Source of the DNA: a virus
Taxonomy: Duplodnaviria > Heunggongvirae > Uroviricota > Caudoviricetes
DNA: 33,401 nucleotides
Reading direction: 5' to 3' (one strand)
Virus record (IMG/VR): IMGVR_UViG_2724679239_000006
The translations under genes and the position numbers were made by a program. Of this stretch, positions 1,008 through 25,905 are shown piece by piece (position 1 is the first letter of the stretch; each line of letters opens with the position of its first letter). The notes under the pieces were generated by a model. The model was not told the origin of the DNA. It ran no database searches and was given only the letters and a program-made list of their open reading frames with translations.

Positions 1008-1355
1008 TTACTTATCACATAAATCAAATGCAGCCTTAGTGACATCTCCCAGATTCTTTTTTAACCCTGGGGCGGCATCATTATCCAGCCAAAATGGATT
1101 ATTGTTATCTAACGGTAACGCACCAAATGTTTTACCTTTTATTCGAGCCAAACCTGTAAGCGCATATAACTTATTATCGTCAAAATTCATCACATAAGGA
1201 TTACCATCTAGACACTGTAACTGAACCTCATCAGTATTAAATGGCCATACCCCATTGAAACTCTCACGTTCAATATTTTTAAAAGGCATTGCGACGGCAG
1301 AAAAAGAAAACATAGATAAAAAAGTAACTAATAGTTGAACATTTTTTACTTTCAT
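1008..1355 (-). CDS. Hypothetical secreted protein (N-terminal signal peptide), lysogeny-side accessory gene
   Basis: 115-aa ORF; N-terminus MKVKNVQLLVTFLSMFSFSAVA looks like a Sec signal peptide; lies between the repressor operon and int. Confidence 0.55.
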   Translation of the reverse strand: MKVKNVQLLVTFLSMFSFSAVAMPFKNIERESFNGVWPFNTDEVQLQCLDGNPYVMNFDDNKLYALTGLARIKGKTFGALPLDNNNPFWLDNDAAPGLKKNLGDVTKAAFDLCDK

Positions 1356-1384
1356 ACCATTACCTCAATTTAGCTCAAGTAAGA

Positions 1385-2035
1385 TTACAAATTAAAAAAC
1401 ATCCTAGAAATGGCACCACCTACCACCCCCCCTACGCAGATAAAGAATATTATTTCTTTTGGATAAAGTCGGATTAATTCTGAAGCACGAAGTCGGACTT
1501 CTGGTAAGGTCGAATTCTCTGTGTTGCTTGATACCGATTGTTGCTCTAACCACGACAATGCAGACTGCAACTGAGAACGAGTAAGATCGTTTAAACGTCC
1601 TGTACCGAAATTGATATGGCAATACCGCAGAAGTTTTTGTCGAAGTCCACAGTCTTCACTGTTACGTAGTAATAAACTTACAAGAGCCTTACAGGCATCA
1701 TGATCTTTACATCGCTCAAGCATTGCATGCAGAAAACTCTCCGCTGTTTTATATTGATTTACTGTCATATCATCAATACCAGCTACACCAATCTCCGCAT
1801 GTACTTTTTGCCAAATAATAAACGCTTCAGTATTGCTAGCTTCTGCAATCGCAGCAACCAAGCTATTTAGCTCCTTACGCTGAGCCTTAAGCAAAGGGCG
1901 ATCGTCATCATCATTATTCGAAGGGATTGCGATATTGACGGTATGAGAACCATCATATCGCCCTATCTGAATATTCTTTTCGTGAAAATCACGCCCAGCA
2001 ACGCGATTGTTTGAACCGTTTGAGTTGACGGCCAT
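1385..2035 (-). CDS. Hypothetical protein with C-terminal transmembrane anchor, lysogeny-side accessory gene
   Basis: 216-aa ORF with its own RBS (GGAGGTGAC before ATG); hydrophobic C-terminus IIFFICVGGVVGGAISRMFF; N-terminal motif NNRVAGRDF mirrors the C-terminus of the upstream repressor. Confidence 0.6.
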   Translation of the reverse strand: MAVNSNGSNNRVAGRDFHEKNIQIGRYDGSHTVNIAIPSNNDDDDRPLLKAQRKELNSLVAAIAEASNTEAFIIWQKVHAEIGVAGIDDMTVNQYKTAESFLHAMLERCKDHDACKALVSLLLRNSEDCGLRQKLLRYCHINFGTGRLNDLTRSQLQSALSWLEQQSVSSNTENSTLPEVRLRASELIRLYPKEIIFFICVGGVVGGAISRMFFNL

Positions 2036-2050
2036 GTCACCTCCCTACTA

Positions 2051-2455
2051 TCACCTACCCTTAGTTTCGTTATAGTCACGCCCAGCGATACGGTTATTAC
2101 CGCCAGAAATATTTAACTCACGTCCTGATGGCTGAGTTTCCTTTTCACTGGCCGCACCTTTTAAAGCCCCGATCACCGCGTTTTTCACATCTAACGAAGC
2201 TGCTCGAAAGCGAGTAATCAACTCCTGCTCATCATCGTTATAAGTTTCAGGTGAGTGAATTCCCAACACAACATACTGAACATCAAGGCCAAAACGAGAC
2301 AGCGCTGCCAAATACGCAGCATCAGGAAAGCTATCTCCTTTCTCATATCTAAGCTGAGTTAGCTTTTTGACTCCACCAATGTCGCTCATAGCAACTTGAC
2401 TAAGTCCCAATCTTTCCCTTTCCTCACGCAACCTCTGACCAATATCATTTTTCAT
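2051..2455 (-). CDS. Prophage immunity repressor, HTH XRE/Cro-C1 family (P2 C analogue)
   Basis: 134 aa; N-terminal helix-turn-helix QRLREERERLGLSQVAMSDIGGVKKLTQLRYEKG; divergent from the early operon and co-oriented with int as in P2. Confidence 0.75.
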   Translation of the reverse strand: MKNDIGQRLREERERLGLSQVAMSDIGGVKKLTQLRYEKGDSFPDAAYLAALSRFGLDVQYVVLGIHSPETYNDDEQELITRFRAASLDVKNAVIGALKGAASEKETQPSGRELNISGGNNRIAGRDYNETKGR

Positions 2456-7911: not shown

Positions 7912-8871
7912 ATGAAAATTTGCATCGACGACGGCTCCACCAACATCAAGCTGGCATGGACTGAGAACGGCGAACGCCGCAACGCCATCAGCCCGAACAG
8001 CTTCAAGTCGGAATGGTCTGCGCCGTTCGGTGGCACGCAGCCCGCGAACTACATGCTTGATGGCGTGCGCTATGGTTTTGATCCGGTCAGCGATCGCTTT
8101 GTCCAGACGACCGACACGCAATACCAGTACAGCGATGTGAATGTCATTGCCATTCATCACGCGCTGGTCAAATCAGGTATCACACCACAGGAAGTGGACG
8201 TGGTTGTCACTCTGCCACTGAGCGAGTATTTCGATACAAACGCACAGCCGGACATGGCCAACATCAACCGCAAAAAAGCGAATGTCCTGCGCCCTGTGGA
8301 GTACCAGAACGGTGAAGCATTCACTATCCGCAACGTGCGGGTTATGCCTGAATCCATTCCGGCTGGCTTTAAGGCACTGGCTGACATGAGTCCGTTTGAA
8401 TCTCTGCTGATTGTGGATTTAGGCGGAACAACGCTGGATGTGGCAAAGGTTCAGGGGCAACTGGCAGGCATCAGCCAGGTATTTTGCGATCCACATGTGG
8501 GCGTTTCCCTGATGACCGATGCCGTGTTGTCGGTGATGGCCGCCAACGGCATGCGTACCAGTCACCACGTCGCCAGTACCGTTATTGAACATCGTCACGA
8601 TGAAGCCTGGCTGCGCCGGCACATCCACAATGACGCGCATTACAACAGCCTGATGGCAGTTATTCGTGAAAAGGAGGAGACACTAAAACAACGCGTGATC
8701 CGCGCACTCGCGGGCTTTTCGGGTTACGGGCGGGTGCTGGTTGTCGGTGGAGGAGCGGAGATTGTGGCACCCGCAGTCCATGAAGTCTATGGAGTCAATG
8801 CGAATTTCATCACAGACGGGGTGCCACAGTTTGCTCTGGTTAACGGTCTGTACGCTATGGATAAGGAGTAA
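7912..8871 (+). CDS. parM: Actin-like segregation ATPase ParM/StbA
   Basis: 319 aa; N-terminus MKICIDDGSTNIKLAW and colinear conserved blocks (YSDVNVIAIHHAL, VMPESIPAG, LIVDLGGTTLD, VVGGGAE, LVNGLY) match plasmid R1 ParM as remembered. Confidence 0.85.
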   Translation: MKICIDDGSTNIKLAWTENGERRNAISPNSFKSEWSAPFGGTQPANYMLDGVRYGFDPVSDRFVQTTDTQYQYSDVNVIAIHHALVKSGITPQEVDVVVTLPLSEYFDTNAQPDMANINRKKANVLRPVEYQNGEAFTIRNVRVMPESIPAGFKALADMSPFESLLIVDLGGTTLDVAKVQGQLAGISQVFCDPHVGVSLMTDAVLSVMAANGMRTSHHVASTVIEHRHDEAWLRRHIHNDAHYNSLMAVIREKEETLKQRVIRALAGFSGYGRVLVVGGGAEIVAPAVHEVYGVNANFITDGVPQFALVNGLYAMDKE

Positions 8872-8877
8872 CCCTCC

Positions 8878-9189
8878 ATGGCGACATTAACCAGAAGAAT
8901 AAGTTTCTATCTGAAGCCAGCCGCCGTCAAGAACGAAGGCAAAGCATGCGACTGGCTGGACAGCCTTACACCAGAAGCCCGCAAAAGCGGCCAACGCGTG
9001 GCTTTTCTGGCCGGGCTGGCACTTCTGAAAATGAATCCGGCAGAGGCTTACCGACTGTCTGCATGGGCTGATGATGAGGCGTTATCAGTGACACAAACCA
9101 GGGCAGAACGCCACATGTTACAGCCAGCGCCCACCGCACAGATAACCAGTCAGATAGCCGGAAATATCCGGGCGTTATTTCCCGAATAA
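8878..9189 (+). CDS. parR: ParR-like centromere-binding adaptor (RHH)
   Basis: 103 aa directly downstream of parM; RRISFYLKPAAV...CDWLDSLTPEARKSGQRVAFLAGLAL parallels the R1 ParR N-terminal region. Confidence 0.7.
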   Translation: MATLTRRISFYLKPAAVKNEGKACDWLDSLTPEARKSGQRVAFLAGLALLKMNPAEAYRLSAWADDEALSVTQTRAERHMLQPAPTAQITSQIAGNIRALFPE

Positions 9190-20927: not shown

Positions 20928-23156
20928 ATGAGTACCACAACACGAAAATTTAAAACCGTTATCACTGATACGGGTGCAAAAAAATTAGCACAGGCAGCCG
21001 CACCAGATGGCAAACCCGTCCGCCTGACACATATGGCCGTGGGTGACGGCGGCGGTACTTTACCCACGCCAGACAGTAAGCAGACCCGTCTTGTGCATGA
21101 GGTGTGGCGACATACCGTTAATCGCGTCTTCCTGGACGCAACACATCAGAACCGCATTATTGCGGAGCTGGTTATTCCTCCAGAAACGGGCGGATTCTGG
21201 ATCCGGGAAATTGGTGTGTTTGATGAGCACGGCGATTTAATCGCGGTGGGAAATACTGCCGAAAGTTACAAGCCAGCCGTTGCCGAAGGGTCCGGGCGTG
21301 CGCAAACATTTCGCACCATCCTGACCGTATCCAGCACGGCCACCGTGGCGCTTACCGTGGATAACACCATGGTGATGGCCACGGTGGATTACGTGGATGA
21401 CAAACTAAAAGAGCATGAACAGTCACGACGTCACCCGGATGCCTCGCTGACCGCAAAAGGCTTTACTCAGTTAAGCAGTGCGACCAACAGCACGTCTGAA
21501 GCACTGGCCGCAACGCCGAAAGCGGTAAAGGCTGCATATGACCTTGCTAACAGGAAATATACCGCACAGGATGCCACCACAGAGCAAAAAGGCCTTGTCC
21601 AGCTCAGTAGCGCCACTAACAGCGTGTCTGAAATGATGGCGGCAACGCCGAAAGCGGTAAAGGCCGCCTATGACCTTGCTAACGGGAAATATACTGCACA
21701 GGACGCCACCACAGCGCGAAAAGGCCTTGTCCAGCTCAGTAGTGCAACCAACAGCCCGTCTGAAACGCTGGCTGCGACGCCAAAAGCTGTTAAGGCGGTA
21801 ATGGATGAAACGAACAAGAAAGCGCCGCTGTCGAGTCCGGCACTCACCGGAACGCCAACCGCACCAACTGCGCCAAAGGGTACTAACAATACTCAGATAG
21901 CAAACACGGCGTTCGTTATGGCCGCGATTGCCGCACTTGTAGACTCATCACCTGACGCACTGAATACGCTGAACGAGCTGGCTGCGGCATTGGGCAATGA
22001 CCCGAACTTTGCGACTACTATGACCAACGCGCTTGCGGGCAAGCAGCCGAAAGACGCCACCCTGACGGCGCTGGCCGGGCTTGCTACTGCGGCAGACAGG
22101 TTTCCGTATTTTACAGGGAATGACACCGCCAGCCTGGCAACTCTGACAAAAGTCGGGCGGGATATTCTGGCTAAAGCGACCGTTGCCGCCGTTATCGAAT
22201 ACCTCGGTTTGCAGGAAACGGTAAATCAGGCCGCTGGCGCATTGCAGAAAGACCAGAACGGCGCAGATATTCCAAACAAAGATAAATTTACGCAAACAAT
22301 AGGTGCTTGCCGCTCTTTTCATGGTTCTATTAGCACAGGTGCAGGAAACTGGACGACGGCGCAATTTATTGAATGGCTGGAATCTCAGTGGGCCTTCAAT
22401 CATCCATACTGGCTGTGTAAATGCTCATGGTCATACGGCAATAATAAAATTATTACTGACACCGGATGTGGACTTATTCACCTTGCGGGTTGCGTTATTG
22501 AAGTTATGGGCAATAAAGGCGCCATGACCATTCGTATAACCACACCGAGTACCTCTAGCAGTGGTGGCACCACTAATGCGCAATTTATATATATTAACCA
22601 CGGTTCAGAGTATTTACCTGGCTGGCGACGTGACTACAACACGAAAAATCAGCAGGCCGCTTTTGCTTTAGGGCAAACAGGAAGCACTGTCGGAAATGAT
22701 AAAGCTGTTGGCTGGAACTGGAATAGCGGGGTATATAACGCAAATATTGGTGGCGCATCGACATTAATCCTCCACTTCAATATGAACGCGGGTAGCTGCC
22801 CTGCTGTACAGTTCCGCGTAAATTATAAGAACGGTGGTATTTATTATCGTTCAGCGCGTGATGGTTATGGCTTCGAGGCTGACTGGTCAGAGTTTTACAC
22901 CACAACCCGAAAACCTTCAGCAGCAGATGTTGGGGCATATACTAAAGCGGAATGTAATTCACAATTTATTACAGGTATTCGATTAGGTACAAAATCATCA
23001 GCGCAAACATGGAATGGTCCTGGCTGGGGCGATAAATCTGGTTACGTTGTTACAGGTTCCGTTAACTCAAACAAAGATGAACTTATTGATACAACACAGG
23101 CAAGGCCAGTGCAATATTGTATCAATGGCACCTGGTATAATGCGGGAAGTATTTAA
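20928..23156 (+). CDS. H: Tail fibre protein (gpH) in current orientation; C-terminal 310 aa encoded inside the invertible segment
   Basis: 742 aa; three tandem 44-aa fibre repeats; C-terminal motif QYCINGTWYN; crossover site inside the ORF at 22201..22225. Confidence 0.9.
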   Translation: MSTTTRKFKTVITDTGAKKLAQAAAPDGKPVRLTHMAVGDGGGTLPTPDSKQTRLVHEVWRHTVNRVFLDATHQNRIIAELVIPPETGGFWIREIGVFDEHGDLIAVGNTAESYKPAVAEGSGRAQTFRTILTVSSTATVALTVDNTMVMATVDYVDDKLKEHEQSRRHPDASLTAKGFTQLSSATNSTSEALAATPKAVKAAYDLANRKYTAQDATTEQKGLVQLSSATNSVSEMMAATPKAVKAAYDLANGKYTAQDATTARKGLVQLSSATNSPSETLAATPKAVKAVMDETNKKAPLSSPALTGTPTAPTAPKGTNNTQIANTAFVMAAIAALVDSSPDALNTLNELAAALGNDPNFATTMTNALAGKQPKDATLTALAGLATAADRFPYFTGNDTASLATLTKVGRDILAKATVAAVIEYLGLQETVNQAAGALQKDQNGADIPNKDKFTQTIGACRSFHGSISTGAGNWTTAQFIEWLESQWAFNHPYWLCKCSWSYGNNKIITDTGCGLIHLAGCVIEVMGNKGAMTIRITTPSTSSSGGTTNAQFIYINHGSEYLPGWRRDYNTKNQQAAFALGQTGSTVGNDKAVGWNWNSGVYNANIGGASTLILHFNMNAGSCPAVQFRVNYKNGGIYYRSARDGYGFEADWSEFYTTTRKPSAADVGAYTKAECNSQFITGIRLGTKSSAQTWNGPGWGDKSGYVVTGSVNSNKDELIDTTQARPVQYCINGTWYNAGSI
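21456..21810 (+). repeat. Three tandem 132-bp repeats (third partial) inside the tail fibre gene
   Basis: Repeating peptide KG(F/L)(T/V)QLSSATNS.SE..AATPKAVKAAYDLAN.KYTAQDATT read three times. Confidence 0.6.
22201..22225 (+). other. Invertase crossover site (left inverted repeat, gix/cix-like)
   Basis: ACCTCGGTTTGCAGGAAACGGTAAA; its exact reverse complement occurs at 25218..25242. Confidence 0.65.
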
Positions 23157-23158
23157 TT

Positions 23159-23692
23159 ATGATGCATTTAAAAAATATTAAAGCAGGAAACCCCAAAACC
23201 GTAGAACAATATAAATTAACACGACAATTTGGCGTTGTCTGGTTGTATTCTGATGACGATAAAAACTGGTATGAGGAACAGAAAAACTTTCAGGAAGATA
23301 CAATAAAATTTGCTTACACTGCCGATGGAATCATTGTGGCTGTAGATAAGGATGTATCGACAATTAATCCCGAAGGTTTAAGCGTTGTTGAGGTTCCTGA
23401 TATTACAGCCAATAGGCGGGTCGATATTTCTGGTAACTGGATGTTCAAAGATGGCGCAGTGATAAAGCGGGAATATACCGAAGAAGAACAGAGACAACAG
23501 GCGGAAAATGAGAAGCAAAACCTGTTACAACTCGTCAGGGATAAAACTCAGCTATGGGATTCTCAGCTACGACTTGGAATTATTTCTGCTGAGAATAAAC
23601 AAAAATTGACCGAGTGGCTGCTCTACGCGCAGAAAGTAGAGTCTACGGATACCTCCGTCCTGCCAGTCACGTTCCCCGAACAACCAGAATGA
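23159..23692 (+). CDS. G: Tail fibre assembly chaperone (gpG)
   Basis: 177 aa; N-terminus [21 protein letters not shown]; directly after H. Confidence 0.85.
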   Translation: MMHLKNIKAGNPKTVEQYKLTRQFGVVWLYSDDDKNWYEEQKNFQEDTIKFAYTADGIIVAVDKDVSTINPEGLSVVEVPDITANRRVDISGNWMFKDGAVIKREYTEEEQRQQAENEKQNLLQLVRDKTQLWDSQLRLGIISAENKQKLTEWLLYAQKVESTDTSVLPVTFPEQPE

Positions 23693-23695
23693 GAG

Positions 23696-23720
23696 AAGGC
23701 CCGTTCGGGCCTTATTTTTT
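23696..23720 (+). terminator. Hairpin terminator between convergent chaperone genes
   Basis: AAGGCCC-GTTC-GGGCCTT followed by a T-run. Confidence 0.5.
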
Positions 23721-24255
23721 ATTCAGGCTTTTGTGGCCATTCAGGATTTGCCGTATCCACGCGGCTGAGCAGAACGCTGTAGCGTTCCCAGCCATCCAGC
23801 CGTGTACGTTCCTCATCTGTTGCCAGATTCATCCTGACGGCACGTTCCAGCAGCCGGATGACTGATTCAGCTTCGGAAAGCAAAGCTGCTTTTTGTGATT
23901 CAGCCTGCTGTTGTAATTCATCTTCTGTATAGACTCTTTTAATTACAGCACCATCCTTAATCATCCAGTTGCCGGAAATATCAGCGCGTCGGTTTACCGT
24001 AATATTGGGTAACTCAATAACACTCATTCCCTCTGGATTAATCAGGGATGCGTCTTTCTCTATGCAGCAAATAATACCCTCCTGGTTATATGCCACTTTT
24101 AACGTGTCTGGCTGGAAGTTTTTTTGTTCCTCATACCAGTTCTTACCTTCTTCCGACCATAACCAGACAACATCAAATTCTTTTGTAAGTTGATACTGTT
24201 CGATAGTTTTTGGATTTCCTGCTTTAATATTTTTTAAATGCTGCATATTAAGCAC
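23719..24255 (-). CDS. Alternative tail fibre assembly chaperone (G-prime), inverted orientation
   Basis: 178 aa; clearly paralogous to gpG ([21 protein letters not shown] versus [21 protein letters not shown]). Confidence 0.85.
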
Positions 24256-25217
24256 GTCCTACATTGTACCACTGACCATTAATATATTTCTGAACAGGCG
24301 CATAGACAGGCCACTCCCAGTCGTCATCAAAGTTACCACCTGTAAGAACACACCCCGCAGGGAGTGTTCCACCTTCGCCACCCCATTTTATTCCGCTCTG
24401 GTTAGCTCCCATGCGAACGTCACGCACATAGCGGGAATCAAAATTTCCATAATTTCCGGGAATAATTTGTGAACCACAAAGCCAGTTCCCGTTATTGTCC
24501 ATATACGCCTGACCGTCAGTACCATTGGCTGTCCTTGAGTTATTAATCATGTAGATGCCAAATTGCTTGTTCCCCAGTCCACCTATCATGAACTTGCGGT
24601 CAGCGTGATTCTGGCGAAGCAACGCCTGAGCGCTATCAGTGTTAACTATATTTTTCCCAAAGATAGCGTTGTTATCGCGCATCTGAATCCACATACCATT
24701 ACTGCTGTTAATAGCAAAACGGTCTGAAAGCGTCTCCCCTGAAACATTAAGGCCACGCCCCATCGAAACAGCGCCAGTAGCGTTATTAATCCATAATGGC
24801 CTTAATCCGTTATAAGTCCCCATGTTGTCACCGGAGTTTGTCAACATGAAGTATGTGTTTGAACCATCATTACGAATAAAGAATCCGTAATTACCATAAG
24901 CAATACGAAGGCCGTTTGCTGATTTTGATATGACTTCGCCATTTACAATGGCATTAACAAGAATATTTAGCGCATCCCATTTCAGCGTCATCAGGTCTTT
25001 TGTTGTTGTGCTTTGTTTGCTTCTCCATTTGAAATATTCATTGCCGTTATCTCCCGTTTCAAACCACATGAATGAATCAGTGTCACCATCGGCATCATTT
25101 TTAAATCCAATCTTCGCCCAGTCAGAATTCCGAATCCAGGCAAGGATTGAGTCGTATTCAAAAGTAAGCCCACCGGACAAGGTATCGCCTGTCTTTTGGA
25201 CGGCGTTACCAGCCTTG
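24248..25217 (-). CDS. Alternative tail fibre C-terminal segment (H-prime), promoterless and startless until inversion
   Basis: Open frame runs through the right crossover site (track ORF 24248..25276); contains [10 protein letters not shown] matching [10 protein letters not shown] at the H crossover; C-terminal motif [10 protein letters not shown]. Confidence 0.8.
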
Positions 25218-25242
25218 TTTACCGTTTCCTGCAAACCGAGGT
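25218..25242 (-). other. Invertase crossover site (right inverted repeat)
   Basis: Exact reverse complement of 22201..22225. Confidence 0.65.
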
Positions 25243-25305
25243 TTTTGATAATGGTCGTTTCTGGCCCACATGGCATGATTTGTGCTTTTGAGCGGGAGAT
25301 TCAAT

Positions 25306-25905
25306 GTGCTGATTGGCTATGTACGCGTGTCAACAAATGACCAGAACACGGATTTGCAACGCAATGCGCTCAATAGCGCAGGATGTGAACTGATTTTTGA
25401 AGATAAAATCAGCGGAACAAAGTCAGCCAGACCGGGATTGAAAAAACTGCTCAGAACACTGTCAGAAGGCGATACGCTCGTTGTCTGGAAACTGGACAGG
25501 CTGGGCAGAAGCATGAAACACCTGATCACACTGATTGAGGAATTACGGGAAAAAGGTGTCAATTTTCGTAGTCTGACGGACAGCATTGACACATCAACAC
25601 CCATGGGGCGCTTCTTTTTTCACGTCATGGGGGCTTTAGCTGAAATGGAACGCGAACTGATAGTTGAACGTACCAGAGCAGGACTGGCAGCAGCCCGCGC
25701 ACAGGGGCGCATTGGTGGGCGTCGTCCGAAACTGACAAAAGAGCAACATGAGCAAATAGCAAGGCTGATTAAAAACGGCCATGACAGAAAACAACTGGCC
25801 ATAATTTACGGCGTTGGTATATCGACGATTTATCGTTACCACCCCGTGGGAGAATCAACCGGGACAACTGAGAAGACCAGAGGAAACAAAAAACCGCTAA
25901 TCTGA
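25306..25905 (+). CDS. Serine DNA invertase, Gin/Cin/Pin/Hin family
   Basis: GTG start giving MLIGYVRVSTNDQNTDLQRNAL; catalytic serine motif, GDTLVVWKLDRLGRSMKHL, and C-terminal HTH; near-identical in pattern to Gin/Pin as remembered. Confidence 0.9.
   Translation: MLIGYVRVSTNDQNTDLQRNALNSAGCELIFEDKISGTKSARPGLKKLLRTLSEGDTLVVWKLDRLGRSMKHLITLIEELREKGVNFRSLTDSIDTSTPMGRFFFHVMGALAEMERELIVERTRAGLAAARAQGRIGGRRPKLTKEQHEQIARLIKNGHDRKQLAIIYGVGISTIYRYHPVGESTGTTEKTRGNKKPLI

Follow-up and report, generated by a model that had tools for sequence, protein, structure and literature searches.

The window analysed here, the whole 33,401-nucleotide stretch of the virus record IMGVR_UViG_2724679239_000006, is a complete 33.4-kb P2-like prophage that runs from int to ogr. 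We describe its lysogeny operon, in which the gene for the immunity repressor is followed by one for a small membrane protein, named ORF216 after its open reading frame (ORF), that begins with a near copy of the peptide on which the repressor ends. The 2.8 kb tested shared 99% identity with Escherichia phage 520873 (Peduoviridae, Xuanwuvirus), and the left end of the prophage, beside yecA, was present in 516 of 5,426 complete E. coli genomes, with many O157, O26, O103, O111 and O121 strains among the carriers. Four genes were arranged on the minus strand in the order repressor, ORF216, ORF115 and integrase, with intergenic gaps of 15, 29 and 5 nucleotides (nt): the repressor of 134 amino acids (aa) at 2051-2455, recognized by Pfam HTH_31/HTH_3 and by PHROG repressor families; ORF216, a predicted tail-anchored inner-membrane protein of 216 aa at 1385-2035, assigned from phrog_5825, Flk_N and the kept gene order; ORF115, a predicted secreted protein of the YebY/DUF2511 family with 115 aa at 1008-1355 (Pfam PF10709, phrog_2950); and, as last gene of the operon, the integrase at 1-1002 (Pfam Int_N and Phage_integrase). 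This is the P2 order with two genes inserted between repressor and int. A previous sequence-only reading had proposed two such same-strand genes, and their positions, strand and tight packing were all borne out; both are also real genes, as seen from the homologues and phrog_5825 match of ORF216 and from the phrog_2950 and DUF2511 matches of ORF115.

The region divergent from the repressor gene, at 2456-2957 on the plus strand, comprised the switch region and early genes, with an Arc-like ribbon-helix-helix gene at 2531-2737 and a Cox-like gene at 2754-2957, and it is because of this divergent arrangement that the product of 2051-2455 was taken as the lysogenic repressor. The Arc-like assignment came from a match to phrog_3431 (Arc-like repressor), and the early genes also agreed with the RefSeq annotation of phage 520873. 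Opposite the Arc-like gene, RefSeq lists a hypothetical ORF of 45 aa at 2545-2682 on the minus strand, where the phage record instead annotates the plus-strand Arc-like gene of 68 aa; the PHROG match (E-value (E) of 1e-28) favours the plus-strand gene. A promoter-like sequence, TTGACA-17-CAAAAT, was found in the switch region at 2465-2493. With regard to translation signals, ORF216 is preceded by a Shine-Dalgarno sequence (GGAGG, 5 nt ahead of ATG) and ORF115 by a ribosome-binding site (GAGG, 8 nt upstream), and int starts 5 nt past the ORF115 stop codon. Since promoter and terminator consensus scans of the four-gene operon gave no convincing internal site, with counts no higher than in shuffled sequence, co-transcription from the repressor promoter through to int appears plausible. 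A scan for the LexA box (CTGT-N8-ACAG) returned two matches, both inside coding sequence and with GC-rich spacers, which is chance level, and a LexA box or Tum-like SOS input was thus unsupported.

The repressor consists of an N-terminal helix-turn-helix (HTH) domain (residues ~5-55), a helix (FRAASLDVKNAVIGAL) and then a C-terminal tail, LNISGGNNRIAGRDYNETKGR (residues 114-134; 2054-2116, minus strand), in which the motif AGRD[FY] was matched. This tail is repeated in the N-terminal peptide region of ORF216 (residues 3-39; 1919-2029, minus strand): while the repressor ends in LNISGGNNRIAGRDYNETKGR, ORF216 starts with MAVNSNGSNNRVAGRDFHEKNIQI, and its peptide core VNSNGSNNRVAGRDFHE (1979-2029, minus strand) is followed by a second, degenerate repeat, IQIGRYDGSHTVNIAI. 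Accordingly, the first ~20-40 residues of ORF216 match the C-terminal peptide of the repressor, as exemplified by NNRIAGRDY versus NNRVAGRDF. In a six-frame translation of the window, AGRD[FY] gave two matches only, namely the repressor tail and ORF216, and Smith-Waterman comparison of the ORF216 peptide with the repressor tail scored 62, compared with 19.7 +/- 4.3 for shuffled tails. Relative to background, the peptide was enriched in N (2.9-3.5-fold), G (1.6-2.4-fold) and V/I (1.3-1.4-fold) and poor in L (0.2-0.3-fold), K (0.5-0.6-fold) and P (0.4-0.75-fold), with M and W also depleted; in the same composition count, Q was not enriched in repressor tails. The two genes lie in the same frame here, and a read-through fusion of repressor and ORF216 was rejected, because positions 2036-2053 on the minus strand read TGA TAG TAG GGA GGT GAC ATG, i.e., three stops and a ribosome-binding site, and because frame and gap vary in relatives. 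A RHIM-like (RIP homotypic interaction motif) 'IQIG' tetrad in ORF216 was also discarded, its glycine being found in this variant alone (IQID, IQIE and IQIH in relatives).

Across genera, the peptide was conserved in both repressor and partner, and in other lineages a different peptide had replaced it simultaneously in both proteins. In Pectobacterium (locus L026), for example, the repressor tail QIFNGDISGQFAGNQIIN is paired with the partner N-terminus QEFNGTAQGQFSSRDIIN; in Pseudomonas (L030), QQFNGPVGTVTSGDVVN with QQFHDRVHQVAAGDIKN; and in two metagenomic loci, QTFHGSVGQSVAGSITN with QDFHGEVGQAAGGDINN (L032) and QVFHGAVSGGVAARDIINN with QEFQGNVDGGVAGRDIVNQ (L035). At least eight motif subtypes were recognized, several of them within Enterobacterales. 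When eight pairs were compared, one per subtype, the local-alignment score averaged 49 for cognate and 27 for non-cognate combinations, and the observed sum was reached in 2 of 40,320 permutations. The signal was also evident in a comparison of 32 clusters at 60% identity, in which the partner segment was set by a fixed rule blind to the tail (the 40 codons before the Flk_N core): here, the cognate sum lay 7.0 standard deviations over the permuted mean and was reached by none of 200,000 permutations. Nucleotide identity between tail and partner peptide was 47-67%, and the same codon was used for 3-4 of 9-12 identical residues (about 30-40%). The similarity is therefore kept at the protein and not at the DNA level, and a DNA-level repeat or gene conversion as its source is contradicted by nucleotide identity and codon use. 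Within the AGRD subtype, HTH domains shared 32-58% identity and tails 57-86%; tail identity correlated with that of the first 40 partner residues at r = 0.77, compared with r = -0.39 for HTH identity, values that derive from five loci and ten non-independent pairs and are descriptive only.

This matching of peptides was accompanied by a conserved gene order. A total of 232 repressor homologues was found, and the order repressor-then-partner was kept in every relative examined (E. coli, Klebsiella, Erwinia and 13 further species), with gaps between the two genes ranging from -4 to 32 nt. The pair also occupied the c-repressor position of Mu-like transposable phages (from Pectobacterium, Gilliamella, Pseudomonas and metagenomic sources), where it is transcribed away from a ner-like gene and the transposase gene. 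When all retrieved loci were considered, obtained with four subgroup alignments as queries because a 31-sequence alignment was too diverse, a repressor-like ORF ended 20-230 nt upstream of 220 of the 237 partner ORFs. The 17 exceptions were explained by the end of a contig, by an insertion of one gene or by a repressor that narrowly missed the threshold, and among them a tail-bearing repressor was present wherever upstream sequence existed. As a single control, one tail-less repressor homologue had no Flk_N gene downstream. In Klebsiella, a single variant of the ORF216 family by itself was carried on 754 contigs. ORF216 was linked to the repressor and not to ORF115, and on comparative grounds it is the predicted second, conserved half of a repressor-plus-partner immunity cassette and not cargo.

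Two departures from the usual cassette were observed. In some Mu-like phages (L033, 2917-3684; L035, 2911-3723), the peptide-matching partner was not called Flk_N by Pfam; these proteins, of 255-270 aa, combine a coiled coil with a transmembrane segment in mid-protein, and their C-terminal part, which contains Cys, is presumably periplasmic and would suit an envelope-side sensor. In the degenerating genome of Candidatus Symbiopectobacterium (L021, 3605-4631), the partner is split by a frameshift, the repressor tail reads AGNNF instead of AGRDF and the integrase is broken; that cassette decays as a whole.

The sequence-only reading had found no assignable motif in either inserted protein, which did not hold for ORF216, a Flk_N protein, nor for ORF115, a member of YebY/DUF2511. 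Hundreds of ORF216 homologues with 56-97% identity were found across Enterobacterales, and the protein matched phrog_5825 with E 6e-101. The Flk_N assignment (Pfam PF27202) was taken from precomputed annotation of ORF216 homologues and their neighbours, and BLASTP aligned residues 45-165 with residues 26-146 of E. coli Flk (28% identity, E 2e-10). The NCBIfam equivalog NF007987 for Flk was matched with 59.2 bits, against a cut-off of 353, and only over profile positions 19-152 of 339. Because this score is far under the cut-off, the profile marks ORF216 as related to Flk but not as a member of the Flk proteins proper. Like Flk (RflH, 'Fluke'; Salmonella, E. coli), ORF216 combines a Flk_N helical domain (residues 45-170; 1526-1903, minus strand) with a C-terminal anchor and a predicted cytoplasmic bulk (PMC6794478; PMC13344023), and Flk is a validated tail-anchored protein (PMC6794478). 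Unlike ORF216, Flk is chromosomal, has 330-400 aa with the domain repeated, is not located beside a repressor, starts with a Pro-rich MQP... sequence in place of the N-terminal peptide, and acts on the flagellar export switch. Among 1.84 billion proteins, the Flk_N family was represented by 135 sequences at 50% identity; the 114 of at least 170 aa divided into 83 of a ~200-aa phage type and 31 of the Flk type, and the N-terminal peptide was present in 51 of the former compared with three of the latter. It is suggested that Flk, a flagellar regulator, belongs to a mainly phage-borne protein family.

The single C-terminal transmembrane anchor that had been proposed for ORF216 was confirmed at residues 193-214 (1394-1459, minus strand) by hydropathy and by an AlphaFold2 helix. 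The only hydrophobic stretch, which is also the hydropathy maximum, lies at the extreme C-terminus (Kyte-Doolittle 17-residue mean of 2.04 at residues 194-210), and, with one such segment and no signal peptide, ORF216 has the features by which tail-anchored proteins are recognized; a hydrophobic segment at the extreme C-terminus was also present in 49 of the 83 phage-type relatives. Structure prediction, which the sequence-only reading had proposed for both proteins, succeeded for one of them: the helical domain of ORF216 was modelled at residues 47-172 (predicted local distance difference test (pLDDT) of about 73-84) together with a terminal helix at 192-215, while the model of ORF115 was of low confidence. 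In the ORF216 monomer, the first 43 residues were disordered (pLDDT 40-45), although many columns of the alignment are invariant in this very region, and a peptide that is disordered yet highly conserved is what would be expected of a segment that folds on binding. The solved folds closest to the model were small helical modules of NinB, Sak and the C-terminal domain of Red-beta, and we treat this likeness to phage recombination proteins as a lead only; a search of PDB sequences with the ORF216 family profile gave nothing significant.

ORF115 presented a different picture. It passed the gathering score of Pfam PF10709 (DUF2511; 25.7 bits against 21), matched phrog_2950 with E 5e-39 and goes by the names 'DUF2511 domain-containing' or 'YebY family protein' in RefSeq. 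The sequence of the E. coli YebY crystal structure (PDB 7n0j) was matched with E 0.009 and 35% identity over 81 aa, a comparison that rests on the aligned part of the sequence in the PDB entry, and Cys48 and Cys113, invariant in the subfamily, aligned with the disulfide cysteines of YebY. The signal peptide anticipated by the sequence-only reading was found at residues 1-22 (1290-1355, minus strand), where MKVKNVQLLVTFLSMFSFSAVA precedes M at the predicted cleavage site: it comprises MKVK, a hydrophobic core (Kyte-Doolittle hydropathy of 1.84 at residues 6-22) and the AXA-type motif AVA before that M, and no Cys lipobox was found in it. With a GC content of 33%, compared with 41-46% in the flanking genes, ORF115 exceeds the rest of the region in AT content. 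Its subfamily is narrow (only 17 protein clusters) and prophage-borne. In the window as well as in Erwinia, Rosenbergiella, Scandinavium and Citrobacter, which are all the contexts examined, a gene of this type lay within the operon of repressor and integrase.

In related prophages, the slot between the partner gene and int was hypervariable, with unrelated genes or none. Across six loci (L003, 5647-6513; L016, 4635-5513; L018, 4663-5538; L008, 5840-6097; L014, 4653-5387; L025, 4609-5257), its contents included BRCT/WYL-like proteins of 288-292 aa, a protein of 291 aa that partially matched PDC-S48 (E 1.4e-8), acidic DUF8087 proteins, membrane proteins and a pair of Zn-ribbon and XhlA-like proteins. 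Possibly, this P2-like clade has here a hotspot for cargo or defence genes that is still uncharted. As a point for annotation, the true cargo hotspot of these prophages starts after the partner gene and not after the repressor. Because of its AT-richness, its signal peptide, its YebY/DUF2511 membership and the unrelated genes found in its slot in relatives, ORF115 looks like cargo, and by sequence it is a moron, i.e., ordinary swappable cargo, and a distant paralogue of periplasmic YebY. The earlier proposal of accessory cargo consequently stands for ORF115, with its low GC, YebY likeness and variable slot, and falls for ORF216, a fixed repressor partner with a co-varying peptide.

Copper delivery has been associated with YebY, and lantibiotic self-resistance with the related protein MlbQ (PMC8689200). 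ORF115 resembles YebY (PDB 7N0J) and MlbQ (PDB 2MVO) in having a signal peptide, both disulfide cysteines and ~90 mature residues, but it differs from YebY in that the identity of ~35% extends over 81 aa only and in that its neighbours are ORF216 and the integrase, in contrast to the copper-linked AZY operon of YebY (yobA CopC, yebZ CopD). Expression of ORF115 would take place in the lysogen, with the periplasm as its site of action, and by analogy with these proteins it is a reasonable guess that it binds a periplasmic ligand or a component of an incoming phage or bacteriocin. A conversion or protection moron of a known family is a plausible description of ORF115.

With regard to the cassette itself, we give about an even chance to the interpretation that the shared peptide physically couples the repressor to a membrane-tethered modulator of the lysogenic switch, with ORF115 as a separate moron. 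The repressor and ORF216 are probably co-translated. The last ~20 residues of ORF216 would fix it in the inner membrane, on the cytoplasmic side, where the remainder of the protein would lie, and from the co-variation we infer that the peptides mediate a direct and specific contact with the repressor, in which the two copies would either pair by β-strand zippering or compete for a single site of the helical domain. A membrane protein would thereby hold a share of the repressor pool, and the consequence would be control over the amount of free, DNA-binding repressor in the lysogen. In the most likely version, ORF216 would be a conditional, membrane-linked antirepressor that sequesters or inactivates the repressor and allows induction without RecA-type self-cleavage; this version is favoured because a self-cleavage domain is missing from these repressors, which leaves the way they are induced unexplained. 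The alternative is the opposite sign, in which ORF216 would stabilize or assemble the repressor.

Antirepressors that act by sequestration or aggregation are known from CTXphi (RstC) and VP882 (Qtip), and PtsG captures Mlc at the membrane. The mode proposed for ORF216 is like theirs in that an intact repressor would be removed from DNA and not cleaved; unlike ORF216, these proteins are made when needed or answer to a signal that is known, and none of them combines a place in the repressor operon with a matching terminal peptide. A possible instance of the induction route in question has been reported for Sp13, the only P2-like prophage of O157 Sakai, which is mitomycin C-inducible with a repressor that has no peptidase motif, a behaviour described as 'remarkable' and left unexplained (PMC2669165). 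The same four-gene operon beside yecA was found here in O157:H7 genomes and other Shiga toxin-producing E. coli, e.g., in E. coli O157:H7 F7508 (L038, 2081-4535).

Several points weigh against the coupling of repressor and membrane partner as outlined above. That the operon-bearing prophage of O157:H7 is Sp13 is something we infer and not a checked fact. Co-variation would also be expected if a third, co-evolving phage factor read both peptides. Furthermore, an antirepressor made in fixed proportion to its repressor needs some further trigger. Strong conservation of the Flk_N domain (invariant W75, H79 and FGTGRLNDL) implies a further binding target that lies outside the model. Finally, several immunity types within the AGRD subtype have nearly the same peptide, so that the peptide alone does not insulate co-resident prophages.

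The explanation closest to that of the sequence-only reading is that ORF216, in the membrane, and ORF115, in the periplasm, are both lysogen-expressed protective cargo for superinfection exclusion or abortive infection, like rexAB, which we regard as rather unlikely. In lambda, rexA and rexB lie on the maintenance transcript right after cI and are present in the lysogen, where they influence the inactivation of the repressor or the passage between lysis and lysogeny, RexB being a membrane protein. The parallel with cI-rexA-rexB that had been drawn for the window holds as an analogy of genes riding on a repressor transcript, and the two cellular locations, together with the weak likeness of proteins in the relatives' slot to candidate defence proteins (the PDC-S48 and BRCT/WYL-like matches), are in line with protection. 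Hex of phage 434 is also encoded on the repressor transcript and influences the switch (PMC3564112). ORF216 shares with rexAB and Hex its position after the repressor gene, but no sequence or fold relationship and no repressor-shared peptide, and the phage families are different. Moreover, PADLOC 2.0 models, including Rex-like ones, matched neither ORF216 nor ORF115 at E <= 0.1, and PADLOC models did not match other odd genes of the window either. ORF216 is fixed to one repressor type in two unrelated phage architectures, with a co-varying peptide, whereas the slot after it holds many different genes; the two proteins are unlinked, and the proposal that they form one protection module was not upheld.

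Less probable again, in our view, is that the shared peptide is a functional amyloid-type (cross-β) templating signalling motif controlling lysogeny. In such a relay, a membrane or envelope cue would cluster the partner, its N-terminal peptides would nucleate assembly, and repressor tails would be recruited, switching the repressor off (or on). Amyloid signalling motifs have been found by means of matched motifs in the fungal HET-S/NWD2 pair and in bacterial pairs of Bell and NOD-like receptor (NLR) proteins, termed BASS (Dyrka et al. 2020, bioRxiv 10.1101/2020.01.06.895854). The likeness to BASS pairs is one of form: a motif of ~20-25 residues stands at the C-terminus of one protein and at the N-terminus of the product of the adjacent, collinear gene; the genes are a few bases apart or overlapping; several motif families exist, each matched within its pair; one partner bears a pseudo-repeat; and the peptide favours N, G, V and I at the expense of L, K and P, with Q in the tails as an exception. 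However, no NLR (NB-ARC/NACHT NTPase) and no Bell/HeLo death domain were among the domains found, the protein with the C-terminal motif is an HTH repressor and the one with the N-terminal motif a small tail-anchored helical protein, and the pair is found in unicellular Proteobacteria and their phages, whereas BASS pairs belong to multicellular bacteria. Because NLR and death-effector domain are both missing, we do not file the pair as a BASS system, and fibril formation is hypothetical here.

Somewhat more doubtful still is a toxin-antitoxin or abortive logic, in which the repressor tail would restrain a membrane-damaging ORF216 that, once freed by loss or titration of the repressor, self-assembles by means of its N-terminal peptide and depolarizes the cell. 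An HTH protein with a C-terminal tail and a downstream partner does recall type II antitoxin-toxin pairs, the peptide occurs in both proteins, and the degenerate second repeat of the partner could self-associate. A single short tail anchor is nevertheless a poor pore former, most of ORF216 is a conserved soluble helical domain, neither a known toxin nor a PADLOC model resembles it, and in the decaying Candidatus Symbiopectobacterium locus the partner and the repressor tail degrade together and not the toxin alone.

We attach little likelihood to the idea that both peptides are read by some other factor (a protease of the host, for example, or a chaperone or further phage protein), for instance with ORF216 as a decoy protecting the tail. 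Terminal unstructured peptides are typical protease handles, that of ORF216 is disordered in the AlphaFold2 model, and a basic patch (KK, KGR) lies at the end of the repressor tail. However, a conserved host factor as reader is unlikely because many subtypes co-vary, several of them in one host order, which such a factor would not drive, and the motif was found in no third ORF of the window.

The least probable alternative makes ORF216 a phage-borne version of Flk which, by acting on the type III export switch of the host flagellum, converts motility, e.g., in avoidance of flagellotropic phages: the Flk_N homology, the partial NCBIfam match and the shared tail-anchored topology favour it, but the score remains far from the equivalog cut-off, Flk proper mostly has no N-terminal peptide, the link to the repressor is left unexplained, and a flagellum-specific role is unlikely because the family, which also occurs in Gilliamella, is abundant in Klebsiella, which is non-flagellated.

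Elsewhere in the prophage, a plasmid-type partition pair lies between replication gene A and the portal gene, a known cargo-hotspot position of P2. It consists of a ParM/StbA actin-like segregation ATPase (7912-8871, plus strand; Pfam E 7e-82) and a StbB-type 'plasmid stability protein' (8878-9189, plus strand), and it had no PADLOC match. In addition, a serine invertase (25282-25905; Resolvase and HTH_7) adjoins a second, oppositely oriented tail-fibre C-terminus with an assembly gene (23719-25276, minus strand), which is preceded by fibre and assembly genes on the plus strand (20928-23692). The stretch 20928-25905 looks like a Gin/Cin-type invertible host-range segment.

The literature consulted contained no paper tying Flk_N proteins or amyloid signalling to phage repressors, which is not proof of novelty, and no published description of the repressor-partner cassette was found, widespread as it is and strong as its comparative signal is. 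Among Enterobacterales and Pseudomonas, P2-like and Mu-like prophages are frequent, yet because a RecA-sensitive peptidase domain is missing from their repressors, their induction is largely unexplained. In this context, the membrane-tethered partner is a testable candidate for the missing control of induction and would tie the lysis-lysogeny switch to the envelope. It would also carry the logic of matching terminal motifs from the NLR immune pairs of multicellular microbes into virus gene regulation. If templating proved true, the cassette would represent an NLR-free relay resembling amyloid signalling, at work in phages whose hosts are unicellular Proteobacteria and common to many P2-like and Mu-like prophages, the one in E. 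coli O157:H7 among them.

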